From Chiloscyllium plagiosum (Eukaryota), in assembly GCF_004010195.1 (NCBI RefSeq), contig NC_057757.1, positions 7,083,402-7,147,401 of the forward strand: a DNA stretch of 64,000 nt. Direction: 5' to 3'. The notes beneath the pieces were generated by a model, which saw only the letters and a list, made by a program, of their open reading frames with translations, was not told where the DNA came from and did no database searches. This document shows positions 4,162-59,105 of the stretch, one piece after another (position 1 is the stretch's first letter; each line of letters starts with the position of its first letter). The translations under genes were made by a program, and so were the position numbers.

Positions 4162-5344
4162 CAGGACTATCCTGTGCCAATGTCCTTCACCCCAGAAAGA
4201 CCTGTGTAACACACCAATTGATCTAATTGGTTTATGTCAACATCTGTCGTCCAATCCTGTCAGGACCTCATTCTCCCGGATGTGTTTATCTCATACCTTA
4301 ATGTGGCCACATGCTTGTGTAGCCTGGAACTATTACAGGATGTCCCATCACATGACTGACCAGAAATCTCTGCTTCTCCTACTGTCTGGCCTTGCAGTTA
4401 GGATTTGCACATTGGTCCTCAACCTGGCTCCATTATCAGCAAACTTCTTTTTCTTGTAACCCTTTGCAAAAACCTACCAATGGAAAATTTCAAGCCTATT
4501 ATCACTAGGTTTTGGTTAGGCATGATAAGATCCCAAGACAAAGTTGGAGATGGTACACAAATCTGCCCAGGATCCCGCTGAAATACAGAAGAAGTTCAGA
4601 GGGGCTGACTGGCCTGCTTCTGTCTTTAGATTTTGAAACTCTATATTATTATCCTACGTTCTGTCAACCTGGTAAAACTGTCACTGGAGGATCTTTAAAC
4701 CAATCTGTTTCACTCAGAGGGTGGTATGTGTATGGAATGAGCTGCTAGAGGAAGTGGTGGAGGCTGGTACAATTATAACATTTAAAAGGCATCTGGATGG
4801 GTATATGAATAGGAAGGGATTGGAGGGATATGGGCCAAATGCTGGCAAATGGGACTAGGTAAAGTTAGGATATCTGGTCAGTATGGACCGGCTGGACCGA
4901 AGGATTTGTTTCCATGCTGTACATCTCTAATACTCTGTGTTACTACACACCTCTGGAGCAGGTGGGACTTGAACCCAAGTCTTACTAGCTTTGGGGTAGG
5001 GCTGCTGCCAACATACCTTCAAACACGCCCTTCTCTGTCCACAACTGATCAGACTCCTACCATCAGAGGATTGAACCCTGCTTTCCCCACATACTTGGCA
5101 GGAATACTAATTACTATACCAAAGCTTAGCAGTGACTCAAACATGTGCCATAAAAATAGTAAGACTAGTTATGGCCATTTCTAAGCATTAATCACAGAAT
5201 CACAGGATATAGAAGAAGTCTCTCAATCCCTTGATTCTGCACTGACAAAAACGACTCCAAAAAATCTACAAATGACTTTCCTGTACTCAGCTCATAGCCT
5301 TTAATGTTATGAAACTGTGACTTCAAGAGTTGGGACTTCATGTT

Positions 5345-6100
5345 ATAGAGTCACAGAGTCATAGACATGTACAGCACGGAAACAGACCCTTTGGTCCAAT
5401 TTGTCCATGCCGACCAGATAACCCAACCCAATCTAGTCCCACCTGCCAGCACCAGGCCCATATCCCTCCAAATCCTTCCTGTTCATATACCCATCCAGAT
5501 GCCTTTTAAATGTTGCCATTGTACCAGTCTTCACCACTTCCTCTGGCAGCTCATTTCATACACCCACCACCTTCTGCGTGAAAAATCTGCTCCTTAGGTC
5601 TCTTTTAAATCTTTCCCCTCTCACCTGAAACCTATGCCCTCTAGTTCTGGACTCCCCCACCCTAGGGAAAAAACCTTGTCTATTTACTCTTTCTTTGCCC
5701 CTCATGATTTTGTAAACCTCTATAAGGTTTACAAAATCATGAGGGGCTCCAGGGAAAACAGCCCTAGCCTGTTCAGCCCCTCCCTATAGCTGAAATCCTC
5801 CAATCCTGGCAACATCCTTGTAAATCTTTTCTGAACCCTTTCAAGTTTCACAACATCTTTCCGATAGGAAGGAGACCAGAATTGCACGCAATATTCCAAC
5901 AGTGGTCTAATCAATGTCCTGTACAGCCGCAACATGACCTCCCAACTCCTGTACTCAATACTCTGACCAATAAAGGAAAGCATACCAAACGCCTTCTTCA
6001 CTATCGTATTTACCTGCAACTCTACTTTCAAGGAGCTATGAACCTGCACTCCAAGGTCTCTTTGTTCAGCAACACTCCCTAGGACTTTACCATTAAGTGT
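5345..6100 (-). mobile_element. 5'-truncated CR1/HER1-type LINE
   Basis: ORF 5729-6049 RLYRTLIRPLLEYCVQFWSP..LERVQKRFTRMLPGL; tail (ctatgact)n. Confidence 0.92.
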
Positions 6101-11077: not shown

Positions 11078-14000
11078 ATTTTAAGGTGAGAGGGGAAAGC
11101 TTTAAAAGGGACCTGAGGGGTAACCTCTTTGCCCCTGAATTGCCAGAACAGTGGTGGATGCAGGTACAGTTACAATATTCAAAAGACATTTGGACATGTA
11201 TGTGAATTATAGCATCATAGAATCATAGAGATGTACAACATGGAAACAGGCTTTTCGGTCCAACTCGTCCAAGCCGACCCCAATCTAGTCCCATCTGCCA
11301 GCACCCAGCCCATATCCCTCCAAACCCTTCCCACTCATATACCCATCCTGATGCCTTTTAAATGTTGCAATTGTACCTGCCTTCACTTCCTCTGGCAGCT
11401 CATTCCATACACGCACCACTCTCTGCATGAAAAAGTTACTCCTTAGGTCCCCATTATATCTTTCCCCTCTCACCCTAAACCTATACCCTCTAGTTCTGGA
11501 CTCTCCTACCCCAGGGAAAAGAATGTTTAAAGAGACATGAGCTAAATGCAGGAAAGTGGGACCAGTTGGTTGGCATGGACTGGTTGGACCGAAGAGTCTG
11601 TTTTCGTGTTGGATGACTCCGAGGCAACATGGGAGGAAGCTTCTCTCTATGCTTAGCATTCAGCCTCTGCAAACATTGAATGCCAGGCTATTTTAGACCC
11701 CTCCGGGTGATTTGCCAGGGCTCAGTGAGTTTTAATGCAGTTTTTTTAAGCAAGATGCGAGGATTATGACAGTCATTTTTTCCAACTCACTGCCTCCGTG
11801 CTATTTCAAACCATGTGTCTGTTCCTTGCAAGTTTAAAACAAGATTAGTAAGCAACACTTCAAAACCACCATTATCCGGATGCACTATAAACATCCACCC
11901 ACCTTGCCAGACAAGACATCAAATCTCAACCCCAGACAGGTTCAATACCTCCCCATTTAACAGCACTTTAGAGTTGGTGTGTGTGTCGGTGGGGAGGGGG
12001 AGGGGGGGGGAGATGGTGATTTGTAATTTTGGTTGCACTTTGTCACTGGAAGCTGGTGTGAAATCAAAAAGAGATATGGTTTTATATAAGACAACATAAA
12101 AGAGAGAGAATAAAGCTCTAATGCTCCACCAGGTGAAAGCCTCATGCTGTTGTTTAATAAGAAAAATAGAGCAAGCAATTTCTGGAGAGGTGGCATTGAA
12201 AAACAGAGAGGAAGGGTGCAGTTTAAATTGGTAGCGACTTTAAGATCAGGGAAATGGCCCATTTTTATTCGCTCAAGGAATGTGGGTGTCACTGGTTGGG
12301 CCAAATATTACTCCCCTATCCCACTGCCCTTCAAGGCATTGGTGGGGAGCTGCCATCTTGAATCGCTGCAGTCCAGATGGATGTTGAGATATTTCCAGCA
12401 GACGGGCCCAGACTTAGTGACTGTAGACTTGAGACGGTCGCTTAGGAATTCCAGTCAGAATTCAGGAGAATCTTCTCTACCAAAGCAGGCCTTATTACAG
12501 CTTTATCTTGCCTTATAAGCCATCCCTCTTCCCTACAGTTTGCAGAGTGTGTCTGGATAATGGGTGCACATAGGTTGCCAACCTCTGTTCCACGTCTTCC
12601 ATCCAACACTGATTCTCTGTTTTGTTTGAATTTATTGGAAGCATCACTTCCATGATGGTGGTGGAGTAGGAATCCAAGCTGGAGCTAGTCCACTCCATGA
12701 ATTATTTTATTTTATTTCCTCTCTATTTTTGCACCTTTTTGCTTTTTCTTTTTATCTTCTGTCCTCAGGTGGTGTCCAGGATGAAATCTAGTCCGGACTC
12801 CCAGCCTCAGTGTTGACTGGAACTCCTGGCCTCAGTGTGGACTGGAACTCCTGGCCTAAGGGTGGACTGGAACTCCAGGCCTCAGTGTGGACTGGAGCTC
12901 CTGGCCAAGGGTGAACTGGAACTCCTGGCCTCAGTGTGGGACTGGAACTCCTGGCGTCATTGTTGACTGGAACTCCCGGCCTCAGTGTGGACTGGAACTC
13001 CTGACCTCAGTGTGGACTGGAACTCTTGGCCTCAGTGTGGACTGGAACTCCTGGCCTAAGAGTCGACTGGAACTCCTGGCCTAAGAGTGGACTGGAACTC
13101 CCGGCCTAAGGGTGGACTGGAACTCCCGGCCTCAGTGTGGACTGGAACTCCTGGCCTAAGAGTGGACTGGAACTCCCGGCCTAAGAGCGGACTGGAACTC
13201 CCGGCCTAAGGGTGGACTGGAACTCCCGGCCTAAGAGTGGACTGGAACTCCCGGCCTAAGGGTGGACTGGAACTCCCGGCCTCAGTGTGGACTGGAACTC
13301 CCAGCCTCAGTGTGGACTGGAACTCCTGGCCTCAGTGTGGACTGGAGCTCCTGGCCTAAGGGTGTACTGGAACTCCTGGTCTCAGTGTGAACTGGAGCTC
13401 CTGGCCTCAGTGTTGACTGGAACTCCTGGCCTCAGTGTGGACTGGAACTCCCGGCCTCAGTGTGGACTAGAACTTCTGGCCTAAGAGTGGCCTGGAACCC
13501 CTGGCCTAAGAGCGGACTGGAACTCCCGGCCTAAGGGTGTACTGGAACTCCTAGTCTCAGTGTGAACTGGAACTCCTGGCCTAAGGGTGGACTGGAACTC
13601 CAGGTCTCAGTGTAGACTGGAGCTCCTGGCCTCAGTGTTGACTGGAACTCCTGGCCTCAGTGTGGACTGGAACTCCTGGCCTCAATGTGGACTGGAACTC
13701 CTGGCCTCAGTGTGGACTCGAACTCACAGCCTCAGTGTGGACCGGAACGCCCGGCTTCAGTGTGGACTGGAATTCCAGGCCTCAGTGCGGACTGGAACTC
13801 CAGGCCTCAGTGTTGACTGGAACTCCTGGCCTTAGTGTGGACTGGAACTCCCGGCCTCAGGGTGGACTGGAGCTCCAGGCCTCAGCGTGGACTGGAGCTC
13901 CAGGCCTCACCGTGGACTGGAACTCCTGGCCTCAGCGTGGAATCGAACTCCCAGCGTCAGCGTGGAATCGAACTCTCGGCCGTGGCATGGACTTAAACAC

Positions 14001-14924
14001 CTGGCCTCAGTGTGGACTGGAACTCCCGGCCTCAGTGTGGAATTGAACACCCGGCCTTAGCATGGACTCAAACTCCTGGCCTCAGCATGGACTCAAACTC
14101 CTGGCCTCAGCGTGGACAGGAACACTCAGCCTCAGCGTGGACTCGAACTCACAGCCTCAGTGTTGACTGGAACTCCCAGCCTCAGTGTTGACTGGAACTC
14201 CTGCCCTCTGCATGGAATTGAACACCCAGCCGCAGCATGGACAGGAACTCCCAGCCTCAGCATGGACTCAAAATCCAGGCCTCAGCATGGACAGGAACAC
14301 ACAGCCTGAGTGTGGAATTGAACTTCTGGCCTCAGCGTGGACAGGAACACACGGCCTGAGTGTGGAATTTAACTGCTGGCCTCAGCATGGACAGGAACTC
14401 CCGCCTCAGTGTGGACTGGAACTCTTGGCCTCAGCGCGGAATCGAACTCCCAGCGTCAGCATGGAATCAAACTCTTGGGGGTGGCATGGACTTAAACACC
14501 AGGCCTCAGTGTGGACTGAACTCGTGGCCTCAGCGTGGAATCGAACTCCCAGCATCAACGTGGAATCGAACTCTCGGCTGTGGCATGGACTTAAACACCT
14601 GGCCTCAGTATGGACTGGAACTCCCGGCCTCAGCATGGAATTGAACACCTGGCCTCAGCATGGAATGGAACACCCGGCCTCAGCATGGACTCAAACTCCC
14701 GGCCTCAGCATTGACAGGAACACCCAGCTTCAGCATGGACTAGAACTCCCCGCCTCAGTGTTGACTGGAACTCCTGGCCTCAGTGTTGACTGGAACTCCA
14801 GCCTCAATGTGGACTGGAACCCCTGGCCTCAGTGTGGAATCGAACTTCCAGTGTCAGCGTGGAATCGTACTCTTGGCCGTGGCATGGACTTAAACACCTG
14901 GCCTCAGTGTGGACTGGAATTCCA

Positions 14925-15150
14925 GGAGAAAGTGAGGACTGCAGATGCTGGGGATCAGAGCTTAGAAATGTGTTGCTGGAAAAGCGCAGCAGGTCAGGCA
15001 GCATTAAAGGAGAAGGAGAATCGACGTTTCGGGCATAAGCCCTTCTTCAGGAATGATGAGGGTGTGCCAAGCAGGCTAAGATAAAAGATAGGGAGGAGGG
15101 ACTTAGCCCGCTGGGCCCACCCTCCTCATTCCTGAAGAAGGGCTTATGCC
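14925..15150. mobile_element. Penelope pseudo-LTR pieces in inverted arrangement, within the 25-bp array, running into a gap
   Basis: 14925-15105 is the reverse complement of the Penelope tail seen at 35290-35433; attcctgaagaagggcttatgcc occurs in both orientations. Confidence 0.75.
15019..15054 (-). ncRNA. Minimal hammerhead ribozyme motif (Penelope type)
   Basis: Minus strand reads AUUC-CUGAAGA-A-GGGC-UUAU-GCCC-GAAA-CGUC-GAUU: intact CUGANGA and GAAA core, 4-bp stem II and GUC triplet; stem I is weak. Confidence 0.55.
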
Positions 15151-16752
15151 NNNNNNNNNNNNNNNNNNNNNNNNNNNNNNNNNNNNNNNNNNNNNNNNNN
15201 NNNNNNNNNNNNNNNNNNNNNNNNNNNNNNNNNNNNNNNNNNNNNNNNNNNNNNNNNNNNNNNNNNNNNNNNNNNNNNNNNNNNNNNNNNNNNNNNNNNN
15301 NNNNNNNNNNNNNNNNNNNNNNNNNNNNNNNNNNNNNNNNNNNNNNNNNNNNNNNNNNNNNNNNNNNNNNNNNNNNNNNNNNNNNNNNNNNNNNNNNNNN
15401 NNNNNNNNNNNNNNNNNNNNNNNNNNNNNNNNNNNNNNNNNNNNNNNNNNNNNNNNNNNNNNNNNNNNNNNNNNNNNNNNNNNNNNNNNNNNNNNNNNNN
15501 NNNNNNNNNNNNNNNNNNNNNNNNNNNNNNNNNNNNNNNNNNNNNNNNNNNNNNNNNNNNNNNNNNNNNNNNNNNNNNNNNNNNNNNNNNNNNNNNNNNN
15601 NNNNNNNNNNNNNNNNNNNNNNNNNNNNNNNNNNNNNNNNNNNNNNNNNNNNNNNNNNNNNNNNNNNNNNNNNNNNNNNNNNNNNNNNNNNNNNNNNNNN
15701 NNNNNNNNNNNNNNNNNNNNNNNNNNNNNNNNNNNNNNNNNNNNNNNNNNNNNNNNNNNNNNNNNNNNNNNNNNNNNNNNNNNNNNNNNNNNNNNNNNNN
15801 NNNNNNNNNNNNNNNNNNNNNNNNNNNNNNNNNNNNNNNNNNNNNNNNNNNNNNNNNNNNNNNNNNNNNNNNNNNNNNNNNNNNNNNNNNNNNNNNNNNN
15901 NNNNNNNNNNNNNNNNNNNNNNNNNNNNNNNNNNNNNNNNNNNNNNNNNNNAGGTGTAATCTAGGTAGCTGTGGGAGTCAGTTTGGAACTCCAGGCCTCA
16001 GTGTGGACTGGAACTCCCGGCCTTAGCATGGAATTGAACACCCGGCCTCAGCATGGACTCAAAGTCCTGGCCTCAGCATGGACAGGAACACCCAGCCTCA
16101 GCGTGGACTGGAACTCCCAGCCTCAGTGTTGACTGAAACTCCTGCCCTCTGCATGGAATTGAACACCCGGCCGCAGCATTGACAGGAACTCCCAGCCTCA
16201 GCATGGACTCGAACTCCTGGCCTCAGCATGGACAGGAACAAACGGCCTGAGTGTGGAATTGAACTCCTGGCCTCAGCATGGACTTGAACTCCTGGCCTCA
16301 GCGTGGAATTGAACTCCTGGCCCCAGTGTGGACCGGAACCCACAGCCTCAGTGTGGACTCGAACTCCCGACCCCGATGTGAAGCATGGCATGGTCTCGGA
16401 TGTAAGGACTGTTATTCTGAACTCTTATTTCTCTATTTTCCCAACTTACTGCTGGACATCTTATTTCTTTATTTTTCTAATTGGGTTCCCTAAGAATTTG
16501 TACTTTAGAATCTGTACCTAGGTTCCTTGGTACCTAGGATGGCACTGTAAGTGGCGACTTGTAAAATTTTCACTGTACTTATGTGCAGACATGTAACAAT
16601 AAAGCTAATTCTTTCCAATTCAATTCAGTTCAGTAAGGCTGCTCATTCCTTATCTCTAAGTAAGGTTCATCAATTACTTATGTGGTCCCACATTTTCTAA
16701 TGTACACGTGTACATAATAAGTTTTCTAATACACCTCTTTAATGCAATGCCT

Positions 16753-18724: not shown

Positions 18725-20670
18725 TAGACTGACAGAAGATGGAGAGTTGCGAAAAAGGGGTCTTTTTCAGGATGGCAGCTGGTGCCTAGTGGAGTTCTAC
18801 AGGAAGCAATGTTGAGACAACTATTCATTTTATACATTAACGATCTGGATGAAGGAACTGAGGACATTGTTGCTAGGTTTGCAGATGACGCAAAGATCGA
18901 CGAAGGGACAGGTAATGTTGAGGAGGCAGGCAGGCTGCAGAAGGACATGGATAGACTAGAAGAGTAGGCAAAGTAGTGGCAGATGGAATACAATGTTGAG
19001 AAATGTGAGGGTAGACATTCTGGTAGAAAGAATAGAAGTTTAGACTATTTTCTAAATGGGAAAAAGGCTGTGGAAGTCACAAAGGGACTTGGGAATCTGG
19101 GTTTAGGACCATTTGCCGCAGCCATTTTGGCGCAAGCGATTTGGCGCGGCCTGTTTGGCGCAGCCCATTTTGCTGCAGACTCATTTCGGGGCAGAACTAT
19201 TTTGGCGCATCTTATATTTATTCCTTTTCAGGCTTAGTTAAAAGAAATAAAAATAAAAATAATGTTTATTCTCTTTAGTAAAATTATTAAAAAGAAAAAA
19301 AAGAAATAAGTTAATTACGAAAAATGTAAAATATGACGTTTATTCAAAATTATGGGCGATCCCTTGTAAATACTCAACATCATTTCTCTCACTAAATCTT
19401 CTTATGAGTGTTTGTATTCTAGTGTCTGCTTCCCTGAATTTCTTTAATGGTAGGCGTCCACTGCTCTTTCCAGTTGGAATGTGGAATTTATATGAAAGAA
19501 CTTTAAACAATGAGGATAGAACGAACAATCATGCAGAAGCTGCCCACAGGAGATTACAATCCAGTTAAATGGAAATTTATTGACAGTTTACAAAAAGTTC
19601 AGAGAGGAAGGGACATTTACTCTGAGCATCTCGTAGCAGGGCATGATATTCCGTTGAAGTTAAAGAAATTCAGGGCAGCAGACGCTAGAATACAAACACT
19701 TGTAAGAAGATTTAGTGAGAGAAATGATGTTGAGGGATTGCCCATAATTTTGAATAAACGTCATATTTTACATTTTTCGTGATTAACTTATTTCTTTTTT
19801 TTTCATTTTAACATTTTTACTAAAGAGAATAGACATTATTTTTATTTTTATTTCTTTCATTAATGCTTTTAACTAAGCCTGAAAAGGAATAAATATGAGC
19901 TGCGCCGAAATAGTTCTGCGCCTAAATGGGTCTGCGGCAAAATGGGCTGCGCCAAACAGGCCGCGCCAAATTGACCGCGCCAAAATGGCTGCGCCGAATG
20001 GTCCCACTCCGTGGGAATCCTAGATCAGGGTTCTCTTAAGATTAACATACAGGTTCAGTTGGCAGTTAGGAAGGCAAATGCAATGTCAGCATTCATTTCA
20101 AGAGGGCTAGAACGCAAGAACAGTGATGTACTGCTGAGGCTGTGTAAGACTCTGGGCATTTGGAAATTTGTGAGCAACTTTGGGCTCCATATCTCAGGAG
20201 GAAGATGCTGTGTTAGAGGGGGTCCAGAAGAGGTTTACAAGAATAATCCTGGGGATGAAAGGTATTTCATATGAGGAGCAGATGAGGACTCTGGGTCTGT
20301 ACTTAATGGGGTTTAAATGGATAAGTGGGGATCTGATAGAATACAGATAGGCCTGGGTAGAGTGGATATGGAGAAGATGTTTCCACCAGTAGGACAGACA
20401 GCCTCAGAATGAAGGGACAACCTTTTTGAACTGAGATGAGGAGAAATATCTTCAGCCAGATGGGAGGAGTCTGTGGAACTCATTGCTGTAGAGGGATGTG
20501 GAGGCCAAGTTGTTCAGTGTATTTAATAGGTTCTTGATTAGTAAGGAGATCAAAAGTTACAGGGAGAAAGCGGGAGAATGTGCTTGAGAAATGTATCAAC
20601 CATGATCGAATGATCGTGGAGTAGACTTGATGGGCCAAATAGCTTAATTCTGCTTCTACATCTTATGATC
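18725..20670 (+). mobile_element. CR1 LINE fragment split by the MULE insertion
   Basis: LYINDLDEG..RFADDAKI, then QVQLAVRKANAMSAFISRGLE after the insert; sequence rejoins across the TSD. Confidence 0.85.
19099..20011. mobile_element. Non-autonomous Mutator-like (MULE) foldback DNA transposon
   Basis: About 350-bp inverted arms (19099-19448 and 19660-20011) with subterminal ttt(t)ggcgc repeats; 9-bp TSD tgggaatct/tgggaatcc; internal transposase remnant PLLFPVGMWNLYERTLNNEDRTNNHAEAAHRRLQ...WKFIDSLQKVQ...YLQGIAHNF. Confidence 0.85.
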
Positions 20671-35816: not shown

Positions 35817-37913
35817 TTAAGTTGGTTTAAATTCCCTAGTTAAAACTGTTATGGGAATAATGTACTGATAATCAAGTCACACTGTGGATGCAAATGCTTG
35901 AATGTCATCACTAAAATGACCAAAGAGAATAGAAAACACTTTCCTTCAAACATAATCTGGTTGTTACAATAAACTTGTTCCTCCAACAATTGTCAAAACT
36001 AGTTAACAATGAAGCCAGAATTAAAACTATTTCTCCTTAATCCCAGACCAAGAAAAACTGTGACACAAACAGCCGACAAACCCTGCTACTTAAAAAGGGA
36101 AAGTTAAAGCACTCTCATTGAGCAATAATCTGTGAAGCAGAGTTTGATGTACCCTCTCAGATGATATGATTCTTTTCATTCAAGCCAAATCTCTGACTGA
36201 GGGGAAATCCTCTGACAGCACTTTTCAAACCCACCATCTCTACCACCTGGAAAGACATGGGAACACTGCCAGCTGGAAGCTCCTGTCTCAGCCACTCACC
36301 AGCCTGACTTGGAAATACATCATTATGGCTGCCTCAAAATCCTGGAATTGCTTCCCTGGCAGTGCAGTGTGGCTGTCCCTGCACTTCATGGACTTGCAGC
36401 TGTTCAAGAAGGCAGCTCACCACCAACTTCTCCAGGTCAACGAGCGATGGGTAGCAAATGATGATTTAGGGAATGATACCCCTATCCCGCGTCTGATCAT
36501 CGAAGAGAAAAAAATCCTCTGGAGCAAGAGACTAGAATGATCTGGATAGCTTTGTGAAAGAGCTGACTCAGGAACGATGGGTTGAATGGCCCCCTTGTGT
36601 GTCACATCACAAAGCTCACTCGATGAAAATACCACTGCAGGTACTTGTTGGTTGCAAAACACTCGAAACAGAAAAAATAAGAACTTGACTCGGCCATTTA
36701 GCCCTTCAGTATGATTGCAGCTGATCAACCAACTCAGTTGCCCTGTACCTGCTTTTGCCCCATAGTCTTTTGCCACATCTTGGGGTCACCACAGTCAGGG
36801 GTAGTCAGGGTGGTCGGTTCTGACCAGCCTGACTCATTGGGACCACTTCAGAGAGTAGTTAAGATTCAAACATATTGCTTTGTGCCTGGAGTCACATGTA
36901 GACCAGACCAGCTCCAACTGCAAGCTGTGGAGGGGTTTTCTGCCCTGGCTGCATGCCTCTCGTTGTGTGGTTAATTCAGTGCCTGGGGGTGTGGGCATGT
37001 GGCATACCTTGGCACACCTTTAGTGTTCAGACTATAAGAGACCATAAGACATCGGAGCAGAAATTAGGCCATTCAGCCTATCGAGTCTGCCCAGCCATTC
37101 AATCATGGCCGATACATTTCTCAAACCCTGTTCTCCTGCTTCCTCTCCTTGATAATCAAAAACCTATCCATCTCTGTCTTAAATAAGACTGACCTCCATA
37201 AATCCACTGTTTTGTGACCAATGGGCACCACAGGGGCTAACATAGATGATTTTCTCCAGGAATGACAGAAGAATTTAAACTGTGAGTTTCCTTTGAGGCT
37301 TTGATTCTTGTCGCAGTCCCTCTTTACCTTCTGATGCCTGTTCACTCACTGATCTTAAACCACAATTAAACTCCCAGCCCTCTCCTTGTTTCCCAGCACC
37401 TATGAAACTCCAATTTATGGTTCTGGTAATCTTATTTTTGTGAACTCTGAGACAATTACATCTGAGATCATATAAGCGACCTCTGATTTGAGAATCAATC
37501 AGATCCTCACAGAGTGACCCAAAATCGGAAGAAATTGCAAAATGTGCATCTGATCCCACCGCTGAGGATCATGTAACTGAACATGGGGTCGAGGTTATAG
37601 CTCAGAGATTGAAGCTACCCAGCCAGCTAATATCCAGCTTGTTGCTCTCCCAGTTTTCCTGCAAGCAGGGAGCAGCTTCCTAAGGCTGTTGCTGCATCTC
37701 AAACACAGTCATTGAGTGATGCAGCACCAGGAGACTCCGCAGTGAAGGGAAAGACAGAAACCCGCTGAAAACGAGTCATGCCAAAGTACAGCGAAAAGCT
37801 GTGTTTGCGAGCAATAAGGTAACATTCGGTAATAAAGAGTTTTCTTAGGCAGCAGTGGGGGAATGCTTGTCTAAAATCGGTTCTTTATGATTTTCTTGGA
37901 GGCTTAAAGGTGG

Positions 37914-38798
37914 CTACCAGCTCATAGCCCACCACCAGCTCAAGGCTCACCACCAGCTCATAGCTCACCACCAGCTCAAGGCTCACCACCAGCTCATAGC
38001 CCACCACCAGCTCATAGCCCACCACCAGCTCAAAGCTCACCACCAGCTCATTGCTCACCACCAGCTCATAGCCCACCACCAGCTCAAAGTTCACCACCAG
38101 CTCATAGCTCACCACCAGCTCAAGGCTCACCACCAGCTCATAGCCCACCGCCAGCTCATAGCCCACCGCCAGCTCATAGCCCACCACCAGCTCACAGCCC
38201 ACTGCCAGCTCATTGCTCATCACCAGCTCATAGCCCACCACCAGCTCACAGCTCACCACCAGCTCATAGCCCACCACCAGCTCATAGCCCAACACCAGCT
38301 CACAGACCACCACCAGCTCATAGCCCACCACCAGCTCATAGCCCACCACCAGCTCACAGACCACCACCAGCTCATAGCCCGCCACCAGCTCACAGCCCAC
38401 CACCAGCTCACAGCCCACTACCAGCACATAGCCCACCACCAGCTCATAGGCCACACCAGCTCACAGCCCATCATCAGCTCACAGCCCACCACCAGCTCAT
38501 AGCCCACCACCAACTCATAGCCCAGCACCAGCTCACAACCCACCACCAGCTCATAGCCCACCACCAGCTCACAGCCCACCACCAGCTCATAGCCCAGCAC
38601 CAGCTCATAGCCCACCACCAGTTTGTAGCTCACCACCAGTTCATAGCCCAACACCAGCTCATAGCCCACCACCAGCTCACAGCCCACCACCAGCTCACAG
38701 CCCACCACCAGCTCATAGCCCACCACCAGCTCATAGCCCACCACCAGCTCATAGCCCACCACCAGCTCATGGCCCACTACCAGCTCATAGCTCACCAC
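37914..38798. repeat. 18-bp minisatellite (agctcatagcccaccacc)n
   Basis: Tandem units; produces spurious (YELVVG)n ORFs on the minus strand. Confidence 0.95.
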
Positions 38799-39421
38799 AT
38801 TTCCTGATATGGTCTTCTCTACAATCCAGTCCCAAAACAGTCCTTCCTGTTGAGACCTAGTTTACTGCATCAGGTGCTCCCAGTGTGGCCTTCTCTACAT
38901 GAGGGAGACCAAATGTAAACTTAGGGAATGGCTCAACGAGCATCTCAGCCAGGCCCACAGGGACCAACCGGACCTCCCAGTCACCATTCATTTTAACGAG
39001 TCCTCCCATTCCGCTTCAAGCATGACCATCCTTGGTGTCCTCCATTGCCATAAAGAATCAAACTGCAAATTGGTGGAACAACACCTCATCTTCTGCCTGG
39101 GCAGCCTACAGCCTGGAGGACTCAACATTGAGTTCTCCAATTTCAAATAACCTCCCTTCCTATCCCCCGACTCTCTTCCCAGCTCCTCACCCTCCCTTCC
39201 ACTCCTCCCAGTCACCTATCGTATTCATCCCTCCCATCGACCAACTAGGTCATACCCTCTACATGTCTTCACCTATCTCCATTTCATCACCCTCCCCCCA
39301 CTTTATTTGCAGCTCCCCTTACCCCCACCCCCAGTCCTGAAGAAGGGTTACACCCAAAACATTGACTTCTCCACCTCCTGATGCTGCCTGGCTTGCTGTG
39401 TTCTTCCAGGCTCCTGCCAGT
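38793..39421 (+). mobile_element. Penelope-like element 3' fragment (GIY-YIG endonuclease remnant plus pseudo-LTR)
   Basis: LVYCIRCSQCGLLYMRETK..PVTIHFN..SHS..KLVEQHLIFCLGSLQPGGLNIEF*; degenerate hammerhead motif at 39333-39367. Confidence 0.85.
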
Positions 39422-54075: not shown

Positions 54076-55157
54076 GTGAGTGGGTGGGGAGCTGAGTCCC
54101 AGTGCACTGTGTAAGGGGGAGTGGGAAGGTGTGTATGTGTGTGTCTGTGTATGTGTGTCTACATGTGTCTGTAAGTGTGTGTGAGTTTGTGTGTGTGGTC
54201 AGTTGGGGTAGGAGCTGGATGGTAGGGGNNNNNNNNNNNNNNNNNNNNNNNNNNNNNNNNNNNNNNNNNNNNNNNNNNNNNNNNNNNNNNNNNNNNNNNN
54301 NNNNNNNNNNNNNNNNNNNNNNNNNNNNNNNNNNNNNNNNNNNNNNNNNNNNNNNNNNNNNNNNNNNNNNNNNNNNNNNNNNNNNNNNNNNNNNNNNNNN
54401 NNNNNNNNNNNNNNNNNNNNNNNNNNNNNNNNNNNNNNNNNNNNNNNNNNNNNNNNNNNNNNNNNNNNNNNNNNNNNNNNNNNNNNNNNNNNNNNNNNNN
54501 NNNNNNNNNNNNNNNNNNNNNNNNNNNNNNNNNNNNNNNNNNNNNNNNNNNNNNNNNNNNNNNNNNNNNNNNNNNNNNNNNNNNNNNNNNNNNNNNNNNN
54601 NNNNNNNNNNNNNNNNNNNNNNNNNNNNNNNNNNNNNNNNNNNNNNNNNNNNNNNNNNNNNNNNNNNNNNNNNNNNNNNNNNNNNNNNNNNNNNNNNNNN
54701 NNNNNNNNNNNNNNNNNNNNNNNNNNNNNNNNNNNNNNNNNNNNNNNNNNNNNNNNNNNNNNNNNNNNNNNNNNNNNNNNNNNNNNNNNNNNNNNNNNNN
54801 NNNNNNNNNNNNNNNNNNNNNNNNNNNNNNNNNNNNNNNNNNNNNNNNNNNNNNNNNNNNNNNNNNNNNNNNNNNNNNNNNNNNNNNNNNNNNNNNAGGC
54901 GTGAGTGGGGGAAGGTGTGAGTTGGGAATGTCTGAGTGGGAGGTGGGAATTAGGTCTGATTTTGAAGGATGTGAATTGGGGGAGATGGGAAATGAGAGTG
55001 TAGGTCCTGGGAGTGAGTTTCATGGGGGAGGGAAGGGGGTGTTGTTAGTGATTAGTGCTGTGAACTCTGCTCATTCTGCTTTCCTCAGTGTTTAATAATA
55101 CTGTAATTCTGAGGCTGTGAATAACAGTGGTGGGTTTGAGGATGCATAGACTGAGGA

Positions 55158-55800
55158 TGGTGTATTTGGCATTGGTGCATTTGGTGTTGGTGCATTTGGC
55201 ATTGGTGTGTTTGGTGTTGGTGTGTTTGACATTGGTGCATTTGACGTGGTGTGTTTGGCAATGGTGTGTTTGGCATTTGACATTGGTGCATTTGATGTTG
55301 ATGCATTTGACATTGGTGTATTTGGCATTGGTGCGTTTGACAGTACGTTTGAGGTTGGTGCATTTGACATTGGTGTGTTTGGCGTTGTGTATTTGACAGT
55401 ATGTTTGGAATTGGTGTGTTTGGCATTGGTGCATTTGGCATTGGTATGTTTGGTGTTGGTGCATTTGGCATTAGTGTGTTTTGCATTGGTAAGTTTGACA
55501 TTGGTGCATTTGGTATTGGTGTGTTTGGCATTGATGTATTTGGCATTTGACATTGGTATGTTTGATGTTGGTGTATTTGGTGTTGGTACGTTTGACAGTG
55601 TGTTTCATGTTGGTGCATTTGACGTTGGTGTGTTTGACATTGGTGCATTTGGCATTGGTGCATTTGGTGTTGGTCTGTTTGGCACTGATGCATTTGGCAT
55701 TGGTGTGTTTGGCATTGGCACATTTGATGTTGGTGTGTTTGGTGTTGGTGCATTTGGCATTGGTGTGTTTGGCATTAGTGTTATAAACATTAGCATGTTT
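55158..55800. repeat. 15-bp TG-rich tandem repeat (ttggtgtgtttggca)n abutting the exon 3 acceptor
   Basis: Tandem units; source of the low-complexity ORFs at 55045-56027. Confidence 0.92.
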
Positions 55801-55824
55801 GATGGTGATATTTTTCTTCCGCAG

Positions 55825-55906
55825 CCCTGTGTGCAATGGTCCCAGTTTCCTGGTACGCCTTCAATGTCACTGTGCAGTTTTATGATCTGACCTACCTCGG
55901 AACCAA
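55825..55906 (+). CDS. CLDN15: Claudin-15 exon 3 (TM3 and extracellular loop 2)
   Basis: Acceptor tttttcttccgcag|, donor AA|gtaagt; 82 nt. Gives (A)LCAMVPVSWYAFNVTVQFYDLTYLGT(K), compared with CLDN15 [27 protein letters not shown]. Confidence 0.95.
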
Positions 55907-56554: not shown

Positions 56555-59105
56555 ATAGACAATAGACAATAGGTGCAGGAGTAGGCCATTCTGCCCTTCG
56601 AGCCTGCATCACCATTCAATATGATCATGGCTGATCATCCTTAATCAGTATCCTGTTCCTGCCTTATCTCCATAACCCTTGATTCCACTATCCTTGAGAG
56701 CTCTATCCAACTCTTTCTTTCATGAATCCAGAGACGGCCTCCACTGCCCTCTGGGGCAGGGCATTCCACACAGCCACCACTCTCTGGGTGAAGAAGTTTC
56801 TCCTCATCTCTGTCCTAAATGGTCTACCCCGTATTTTTAAGCTGTGTCCTCTGTTTCGGCACTCACCCCGCAGCGGAAACATGTTGCCTGCCGCCAGAGT
56901 GTCCAATCCTTTGATCATCTTATATGTCTCAACCAGATCCCCTCTCAGTCTTCTAAACTCAAGGGTACACAAGCCCAGTCGCTCCAGTCTTTCAGTGTAA
57001 GGTAATCCCGCCATTCCAGGAATTGACCTCGTCCAGGTGTGGTCTCACCAGGGCCCTGTACAGCTGCAGAAGGACCTCTTTGCTTCTATACTCAATCCCT
57101 CTTGTTATGAAGGCCAGCATGCTATTAGCCTTCTTCACTACCTGCTGTACCTGCATGCTTACCTTCATTGAGTGGTGTACAAGAACCCCCAGATCTCTCT
57201 GTACTGCCCCTTTACCTAAATTGATTCCACTTAGGTGGTAATCTGCCTTCCTGTTCTTGCCACCAAAGTGGATAAGGATCCATTTATCCACGTGAAAGTG
57301 CATCTGCCATGCATCTGAGCACTCACCTAACTTGTCCAGGTCACCCTGTAATCTCCTAACATCCTCATCACATTTCACCCTGCCACCCAGCTGATGAAAT
57401 TTGCGAATGTTATTGCGAATACCATCTTGTATATCCTGAAGATAGATTGTAAAAAGCTGCGGTCCCAGTACTGATCCGTGCGGTACCCCACTGGCCAGTG
57501 CCCGGCATTCCGAAATGGAGGGGTGGAGGAGTGTGGAAGGATGAGAGAATGCAGGCTGCGGCCCTATGAAGCAGGGGGAGGGCTTGCAGTTGGCCTGTGT
57601 GGGGATGTGGGAGACTACAGGAGCCTGGTGGGCAAGGGCTAGCTGAAAGGCAGCTGGAGGGACGGAGGGAGGGAAGCACGCACGGAGGAGGAAGAGCAAA
57701 GAGAAAAGAGAAAAAAAAGCCAAAGGGGATAAAGAGAAAGAGCAAGAAAGAAAATGTGGCTGGCCAGCACGCCTTGAAGTAGGCAGAAAAGGCAGGGGCC
57801 AGCGCCTACGGCCATACTAGTCTGAAAACGCCCGATCTCGTCTGATCTCGGAAGCTAAGCAGACTCAGGCCTGGTTAGTACTTGGACGGGAGACCGCCTG
57901 GGAATACCAGGTGCAGTAGGCTTTTTCCGCCAGCAGTGGCTGCTCAAGTCACCCCTCTGCACTTGTCTTGTGCCAGGCAATGGAGCGGCAGGTTATTTCT
58001 GCNNNNNNNNNNNNNNNNNNNNNNNNNNNNNNNNNNNNNNNNNNNNNNNNNNNNNNNNNNNNNNNNNNNNNNNNNNNNNNNNNNNNNNNNNNNNNNNNNN
58101 NNNNNNNNNNNNNNNNNNNNNNNNNNNNNNNNNNNNNNGGGGACTTATCAGCCTTCAGACCTAACAGTCTCTCCAACACCAATTCCTGGCAAATATAAAT
58201 TCCCTTCAGTTCAGGTCCTTCAGCCACTGTTACCTCAGGGAGATTGCTTGTGTCTTCCCCAGTGAACACAGATCTGAAGTACCAATTCATTCTTCTGCCA
58301 TTTCTTTGTTCCCCGTAATATATTCCCTTGTTTCTGTCTTCAAGGGCCCAATTTTAGTCTTAACCATTTTTTTTGCCTTTCACATACCTAAAAAAGTTTT
58401 TACTATCCTCCTTTATATTATTGGCCAGTTTACTTTCGTACCTCATTTTTTCTCTGCGTATTTCCTTCTTAGTAATCCTCTGTTGTTCTTTAAAAGCTTC
58501 CCAGTCCTCTGTTTTCCCACTTATCTTTGCTATATTATACTTTTTCTCTTTTAACTTTATATGTTTCTTAACTTCCCATGTCAGCCACGGCCACCCATAC
58601 TTCCTCCTAGGATCTTTCTTCCTTTTTGGAATGAACCGATCCTGCAACTTCTGCATTGTACACAGAAATATCCGCCATTGTTCCTCCACTGTCCTCCCTG
58701 CTAAGGTATTGCACTATTGAAATTTAGCCAGCTCCTCCCTCATAGCTCGATAGTTCCCTTTATTCAACAGGAATATTGTCACTTCTGATTGTACCCGCTC
58801 CCTCTCAAATTGCAGATTGAAGCTTATTGTATTATGGTCACTACTTCCCAATGGCTTCTTCACTTCGAGGTCACTGACCAATTCTGGTTCGTTGCACAAT
58901 ACCAAATCCAGAATTGCCTTCTCCCTTGTCGTCTCCAGCACCAGCTGTTCTAAGAATCCATCTCTGAGGCACCCCACAAAGTCTCTTTCTTGAGGTCCAA
59001 AACCATCCTGATTCTCCCAGTCTACCTGCATGTTGAAATCCCTCATAACAACTGTAGCAACATCTCTGTGACAGGCCAATTTCAGCTCCTGATTCAACAT
59101 TACAT
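56555..59105 (-). mobile_element. CR1 LINE (RT and 3' end at 56555-57510; endonuclease/linker at 58139-59105) interrupted by the 5S unit and a gap
   Basis: ASGVPHGSVLGPQLFTIY and LQLYRALVRPHL; after the gap ILDLVLCNEP..LGSSDHNTISF. Confidence 0.85.
57804..57923 (+). rRNA. 5S rRNA gene, full length, followed by a Pol III T-run terminator
   Basis: GCCTACGGCCATACTAGTCTGAAAACGCCCGATCTCGTCTGATCTCGGAAGCTAAGCAG...TTAGTACTTGGACGGGAGACCGCCTGGGAATACCAGGTGCAGTAGGCTT. Box A, intermediate element and box C are present; TTTTT at 57922-57926. Confidence 0.95.

Follow-up and report, generated by a model that had tools for sequence, protein, structure and literature searches.

A non-autonomous FLYWCH/MULE derivative with a probably extended TIR in a decayed LINE of Chiloscyllium plagiosum

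Based on the portions of the published papers available to us, several described systems resemble the element that we report here from the shark Chiloscyllium plagiosum. Tm1 of Meloidogyne (PMC3169594) shares with it a 9-bp TSD, asymmetric 7-bp tips that lie outside the inverted repeat, a GGA core, tandem units of about 14 bp and non-autonomous forms of about 0.9 kb, and its FLYWCH-MULE transposase of about 470-500 amino acids is of the same size as that of the element's relatives. The two differ in the sequences of the unit and of the second tip and in the host, a nematode in the case of Tm1, and in the available text the TIRs of Tm1 are described without coding sequence. Muta1 of Aedes aegypti, a member of the Phantom group (PMC5225508, PMC5499845), has a FLYWCH and DDE transposase in which tryptophan and glutamate stand 18 residues apart and aspartate and histidine 24 residues apart, as in the element's relatives; it also has, like the element itself, an 8-9 bp TSD and a type 2 foldback TIR with subterminal repeats. 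These repeats bind the Muta1 transposase. Unlike the arms described below, however, the TIRs of Muta1 are 145 bp long, are treated as symmetric and have a palindromic tip and, in the same portions of text, no coding sequence.

The replacement of one end by the other has been described in other superfamilies. In Rpmar49 and Rpmar17, mariner elements of Rhodnius (PMC4678618), and in Drosophila mariner MITEs (PMC4161770), the interior of one end is replaced by the inverted other end and the long TIRs carry transposase homology; these copies are non-autonomous and measure about 0.9-1 kb, as does our element. They belong to Tc1/mariner, use a TA target and were shown to be multi-copy, whereas the present element is known from one site. 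Deletion between adjacent copies was the explanation given for them (PMC4678618, PMC4161770). In the 2RT copies of Galileo (PMC3573991), which are also non-autonomous, one end has gained an inverted copy of the internal sequence that adjoins the opposite TIR, and repair by non-allelic recombination was proposed for this TIR extension. Galileo differs in that it belongs to the P superfamily and that the recruited sequence consists of the non-coding F1/F2 regions. In maize, Mu killer (PMC3440606) is a MULE derivative with an inverted partial duplication of the transposase gene, from which a long hairpin is possible, as it is here. In Mu killer both TIRs come from one end, about 1.3 kb of the 5' part of mudrA is involved and silencing has genetic proof. 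The TIRs of our element do not come from the same end in this sense, as two tip types are present; its copied coding part is 35 codons of the 3' end, and the element is known from sequence alone.

The locus was analysed in a 64-kb window, the whole stretch of contig NC_057757.1 in which all positions given here are counted. The sequence-only reading had described a 913-bp AT-rich insert in a LINE ORF2, with a 9-bp TSD, inverted arms of about 350 bp and subterminal repeats of about 15 bp, and each of these features was reproduced (Table 1). The element spans 19099-20011 (913 bp) and has a GC content of 36.7%, against about 45% in the neighbouring 1-kb bins. When its inverted arms, 19106-19447 (342 bp) and 19660-20004 (345 bp), are aligned, 309 of the 332 ungapped columns are identical (93%); the gaps measure 12, 10 and 1 bp, and the arms share perfect runs of 41, 35, 32, 27, 25 and 21 bp. 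The arms exceed the 100 bp that mark the TIRs of the MULE superfamily, and about 107 bp of each is subterminal array. At each end the GGAC core and seven subterminal units lie in identical register, with spacings of 14, 14, 14, 15, 16 and 16 bp. The two TSD copies, TGGGAATCT and TGGGAATCC, lie outside both ends and match at eight of nine positions, for which the chance at a fixed offset is about 1e-4; a reading shifted by one base, a perfect 8-bp duplication, fits too. The duplication falls within the 8-10 bp given for MULEs (PMC5499845). Its sole mismatch is the last base, which abuts the first G of the element, and CpG decay is the likely cause. Rfam gave no match at the element, and no host gene spanning it was found among the 12 ORFs scanned.

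Table 1. Features of the element and of the LINE that it interrupts (positions in the window)
Feature	Position	Strand	Basis
Decayed CR1-like LINE ORF2 to the left of the element (RT core FADD)	18734..19089	+	paralogue alignment
Left TSD copy TGGGAATCT	19090..19098	+	
Left tip of 7 bp, GGGTTTA, beyond the inverted repeat; T-Y-A type of native end	19099..19105	+	
Left subterminal array (7 units, 14-16 bp each) with GGAC core	19106..19212	+	
Inverted copy of the AT-rich 3' untranslated region, GC 17%, without 12 bp kept in the right arm	19213..19339	-	
Last 35 transposase codons with the stop, as an inverted copy (KKFREAD...YLQGIAHNFE*)	19340..19447	-	
Single-copy spacer, transposase remnant: W 19482, catalytic E 19536, frameshifting deletion near 19560-19567	19448..19659	+	
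Transposase C-terminus, original orientation; 10-bp deletion near 19735; stop 19755-19757	19660..19757	+	
AT-rich 3' untranslated region, GC 20%	19758..19897	+	
Right subterminal array (7 units) and GGAC core	19898..20004	-	
Right 7-bp tip CGGAGTG; native end type A-R-G	20005..20011	-	
Right TSD copy TGGGAATCC	20012..20020	+	
Interrupted LINE ORF2, part after the insertion	20021..20302	+	paralogue alignment

The flanks join in frame across the insertion site. A LINE ORF2 paralogue from the window, which carries Pfam RVT_1 (E 4e-9), aligns with residues 100-210 to the left of the element and with residues 209-256 to the right, and the insertion therefore interrupts a single LINE copy. We call this LINE CR1-like, a name that does not come from a repeat library. 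The claim that removal of the insert restores the CR1 held in part: the frame is kept and the paralogue spans the site, but the restoration is only local, as the interrupted LINE has other stops and frameshifts and is decayed. The window is depleted of CpG (observed/expected ratio of 0.28) and contains many LINE ORF2 fragments. In the two arrays the ratios are 0.92 and 1.15, and CpG being still abundant there fits an insertion younger than its surroundings.

Elsewhere in the window, a full-length 5S rRNA match at 57804-57922 on the plus strand (Rfam RF00001, 107.9 bits) adjoins a LINE ORF2 fragment at 56992-57816 on the minus strand, and may be a dispersed or retroposed copy. An inverted pair of 232 nt at 4708-4939 and 5352-5583, 84% complementary and 412 nt apart, probably consists of two opposed retroelement pieces. 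Long minisatellite-like arrays with repetitive open frames occupy about 13640-15080, 37885-38860 and 55045-55890. Runs of N, which mark assembly gaps, are found at about 15150-15950, at 54230-54900 and near 58150-58300, and two of them adjoin repeat arrays.

All peptides that had been named in the arms and the spacer were found, and their assignment to a FLYWCH/Phantom-like Mutator transposase gained support. The 39-residue spacer peptide does have MULE/DDE matches, with 207 proteins at E<=0.001. Among the longer matches, PF10551 (MULE) was present in 7 of 17 scanned, six of them above the cut-off, and FLYWCH in 4 of 17; among the matches of the closest shark relative, P0003, the two domains were present in 16 and 11 of 29, respectively. 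In a local comparison of 154 proteins, 69 matched the second peptide and 26 matched the left arm on the minus strand, so that transposase homology lies in the copied part, as in Rpmar49. A word-indexed search with the 56-residue second peptide found no match among the longer proteins. Pfam assigned no family to five element and flank pieces, nor to four further flank pieces; the element's own pieces lack a match because they are located downstream of the modelled domain. An atlas search returned unnamed clusters, and the nearest named family, MULE at 0.83, is a lead only.

The glutamate at 19536 stands 18 residues after a conserved tryptophan, and the spacing is equal in all three full-length relatives printed. 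In Muta1 the corresponding residues are W401 and E419, at the same spacing of 18, and E419 is needed for transposition (PMC5499845, PMC5225508), in agreement with the proposal that this residue is the catalytic glutamate. The spacer, put earlier at about 210 bp, measures 212 bp and is single-copy. It encodes both peptides as described, but their separation is a frameshifting loss of about 6-7 codons as compared with the homologues. The right arm is without YLQ, which was removed by the 10-bp gap. An autonomous MULE has a FLYWCH finger, both aspartates and CxxH. Only the last 100 or so of about 465 residues are kept here, with two frameshifts, and the zinc finger and both aspartates are absent; the element is thus non-autonomous. 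These results indicate that it is a real, non-autonomous, Tm1/Phantom-like FLYWCH/MULE derivative with a probably extended TIR. Membership in the Phantom family itself (group 20 of PMC6446971) is at most putative, the tree given below being composed of database matches.

The outermost 7 bp of the two ends are not inverted copies of each other. The tips GGGTTTA and CGGAGTG differ at four of seven positions, three by transversion, with a binomial p of 7e-4 against the arm background and, as compared with 23 of 332 in the arms, a Fisher p of 0.001 (both post hoc). For comparison we used 80 related loci from invertebrate relatives at about 40-70% amino-acid identity, mostly of one family, so the counts that follow are not independent. 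In all nine loci with both ends called (eight distinct insertions), the tips differ at 3-5 of 7 positions, and in seven of the nine the called ends are flanked by a TSD of 8 or 9 bp. Of the 21 upstream tips, 15 have T-Y-A at positions 4, 5 and 7 and one has A-R-G; of the 14 downstream tips, two have T-Y-A and eight A-R-G. These counts retain L021, L025 and L068, whose tips seem to have been miscalled, and L056 and L058, whose calls could be displaced by a single base. The left tip of the element is T-Y-A and the right tip is A-R-G. With the tip profile the left tip scored +3.7 to +3.9 bits and the right tip -0.75 to -1.35. Many loci (L016, L037, L048, L051, L069, L074, L080 and others) are derivatives of 0.8-1 kb that contain the transposase C-terminus only; 20 of the 21 upstream tips come from such short copies, a bias in that the search patterns sat in the C-terminus. 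In a second family (L026, L054, L063) the orientation is opposite to that of the main one, with the T-Y tip on the downstream side of the transposase, and hence the polarity is not fixed and only the difference between tips is consistent.

The ends are Tm1/Phantom-like in their build, with asymmetric 7-bp tips, a GGA core and tandem units of about 14 bp. The left tip shares five of seven letters with Tm1 motif A1. By eye, the right tip and the repeat unit are unlike Tm1 A2 or C, and the element is not Tm1 proper. The firm point is that it carries two different tips, in the manner of native elements, and not two copies of one end. An origin by duplication of the right end, as the sequence-only reading had it, is not supported by this pattern: the tips differ as native left and right tips do in Tm1 and in the related loci, and only the interior was copied.

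The closest proteins by identity are two hypothetical proteins of Chiloscyllium punctatum, encoded on scaffolds that measure 1.35 and 0.80 Mb; they are 89% and 85% identical to the element along some 35 residues. The pair carries the accessions GCC34585.1 and GCC36898.1, and its members, P0002 and P0003, share a TDNN change and the same end residue, features pointing to a possible amplified non-autonomous subfamily miscalled as genes. The best longer relatives are invertebrate transposases, with 67-69% identity over 93 residues, and one cluster of relatives contains a Homarus americanus protein. One protein, P0117 (499 aa; FLYWCH 5-66, MULE 201-291), has domain coordinates near those published for the Tm1-A transposase (496 aa; 5-66; 197-294). 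A tree of 44 rows and 165 columns unites the element with the two shark proteins (support 98/91); this clade joins a four-row set with the lobster protein (98/86), and around them stand sequences of insects, mites and nematodes. Apart from the sharks, no vertebrate was named in the 30 clusters looked up or among the names printed elsewhere, where most matches are unnamed. At the DNA level, the similarity of the element to the 80 related loci is limited to stretches below 100 bp. No relative was found among viral contigs (0 of 71 candidates), and no viral vector; prokaryote genomes held none either (0 of 52 candidates), and the exact TIR pattern had no match in metagenome contigs. In a search of sequencing runs, 16 runs of three organisms contained 20-32% of the sampled words, none contained half of them, and no RNA run was among the matches listed; four further rows, with shares below 0.2, were disregarded. 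The position of the shark clade among invertebrate elements suggests horizontal transfer, and transfer into the shark lineage is plausible, within the limits of a short alignment, thin sampling and so restricted a DNA similarity.

How, then, did the long arms arise? Both Chiloscyllium punctatum proteins extend colinearly upstream through the junction (RRLRRGNGRRP), which makes 19447/19448 a rearrangement point. The inverted match on the left extends for 34-161 bp in nine of the ten complete related elements and for 295 bp in the tenth, and none of the 80 related loci, many clipped by contig ends, has transposase matches on both strands; the long coding arm is thus derived and not the norm of the group. 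Probably, repair replaced the inside of the left end with an inverted copy of the inside of the right end, a case of TIR extension. While a break or an excision gap was being mended, the left end would have paired with the right one via the shared arrays, and the right interior would have been copied about 235 bp further inward, through the 3' UTR and the last 35 codons. Copying would then have rejoined the coding strand at a microhomology of 2-3 bp (a TAA or AA overlap), as deduced from the relatives' proteins and not from parent DNA, and the left tip would have remained native throughout. The parent transposase, acting in trans, would have recognised the two different 7-bp tips and the subterminal arrays and inserted the element into the old LINE; the insertion event follows from the TSD, and we infer the enzyme step from Muta1 biochemistry. 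What speaks against TIR extension is that the tip types were taken from invertebrate relatives and not from intact ends of the shark family. Divergence is higher in the subterminal zone than in the inner arms (p 0.04), but this contrast is lost without CpG sites (p 0.15) and so does not mark the exchange point.

Among the relatives, L055 has an upstream-type tip on a downstream interior and L056 has swapped tips. Overall, L055 (600-800), L056 (730-1680) and L057 either have the interior flipped with respect to the tips or combine a downstream interior with an upstream-type tip, which shows exchange between the two ends in this element group. Such exchange speaks for TIR extension and also leaves room for a two-step route, in which a crossover between the arrays inverted the interior and recombination or a template switch with a normal copy then joined two 3' interiors. 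This route would yield the same product with two different tips kept, and the tip-swapped copies L055-L057 speak for it, but it needs two events and a partner copy and no tip-swapped shark copy was seen; we consider it unlikely. An autonomous parent that already had long TIRs with an inverted coding end, of which the element would be a plain internal deletion, accords with the perfect register of the two arrays and with the range of MULE TIRs, from 14 to 500 bp and up to 613 bp in the Phantom group (PMC6446971). Given that inverted coding sequence is absent from the 80 loci, within the same limits of clipping, that complete relatives carry short inverted ends and that the longest Galileo TIRs occur only in non-autonomous copies (PMC3573991), we regard such a parent as quite unlikely. 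The model put forward for Rpmar49 and Rpmar17 (PMC4678618), applied here, would have the whole right end duplicated in inverted orientation, for instance by deletion between neighbouring copies, and then transposed as a two-right-ended unit. It would account for arms that are 93% identical including the coding sequence and for a TSD outside both ends. It also predicts identical tips, whereas the observed ones show the pattern of a native pair, and the single Tm1 element with one motif at both ends had no TSD (PMC3169594), which leaves this origin improbable. That the structure is an assembly or library artefact, a fold-back chimera, is barely credible: N gaps do occur elsewhere in the window, but a chimera should have near-identical arms, and here 23 sites differ between them and each arm carries a deletion that the other lacks; the two flanks, moreover, agree with the TSD and with the interrupted LINE.

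Under TIR extension, with native tips, the TSD marks the time at which the ends were inserted, not that of the rearrangement, and the foldback may have formed before or after arrival. Native tips and a TSD fit a rearrangement in place equally well, so that the TSD is no proof that the foldback moved as a unit. No sibling foldback copy was found within the 64-kb window, and the antisense-arm peptide was found in none of 198 proteins, both weak tests; a search with the junction-spanning ORF gave 11 matches covering 38-56% of the query. The odds are about even between a foldback form that was amplified and one made in place at a single site.

The long transposase-derived hairpin that had been anticipated was recovered in the RNA fold of the element strand, at -559.5 kcal/mol with a z of -40 against 20 shuffles. 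Read-through RNA from either strand would form a duplex of about 340 bp matching the 3' end of the parent. The shark copies seen are all broken, and any silencing role is therefore probably historical. The hairpin model is disputed even for Mu killer of maize (PMC3440606). It is a long shot that FLYWCH/MULE elements entered cartilaginous fishes horizontally from marine invertebrates, that an amplified and mobile two-tip foldback family arose there and that its hairpin gave small RNAs against the 3' end of the parent transposase, as a vertebrate counterpart of Mu killer.

The question of MULEs in vertebrates is contested rather than blank. In the portions available to us, a 2019 survey (PMC6446971) doubts vertebrate MULEs and leaves the question open, PMC4350176 lists MuDr in human and PMC9004415 puts the number of human MULE-MuDR protein fossils at 437. 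In the main text of PMC7070016, as available, there is no mention of MULE, MuDR, Mutator or shark; its supplements and those of PMC6446971 may list vertebrate MULEs; the accessible parts of PMC5381603 and PMC13320814 contain nothing on MULEs. In a literature search that covered few subscription papers, we found no such form in an animal MULE and no shark MULE family. End-replacement with long TIRs is already known from mariner and Galileo, and the foldback extends this rearrangement to an animal MULE, a modest addition that would outgrow modest if siblings or small RNAs were found. The retained asymmetry of the tips predicts that this element group requires two different ends. Of stronger interest than the hairpin is the presence, in a cartilaginous fish, of a MULE whose structure is clear and which is nested within a set of invertebrate elements. 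With transposase homology, ends typical of the group, a TSD in the host LINE and a clade with two Chiloscyllium punctatum proteins, the element provides a concrete test case.
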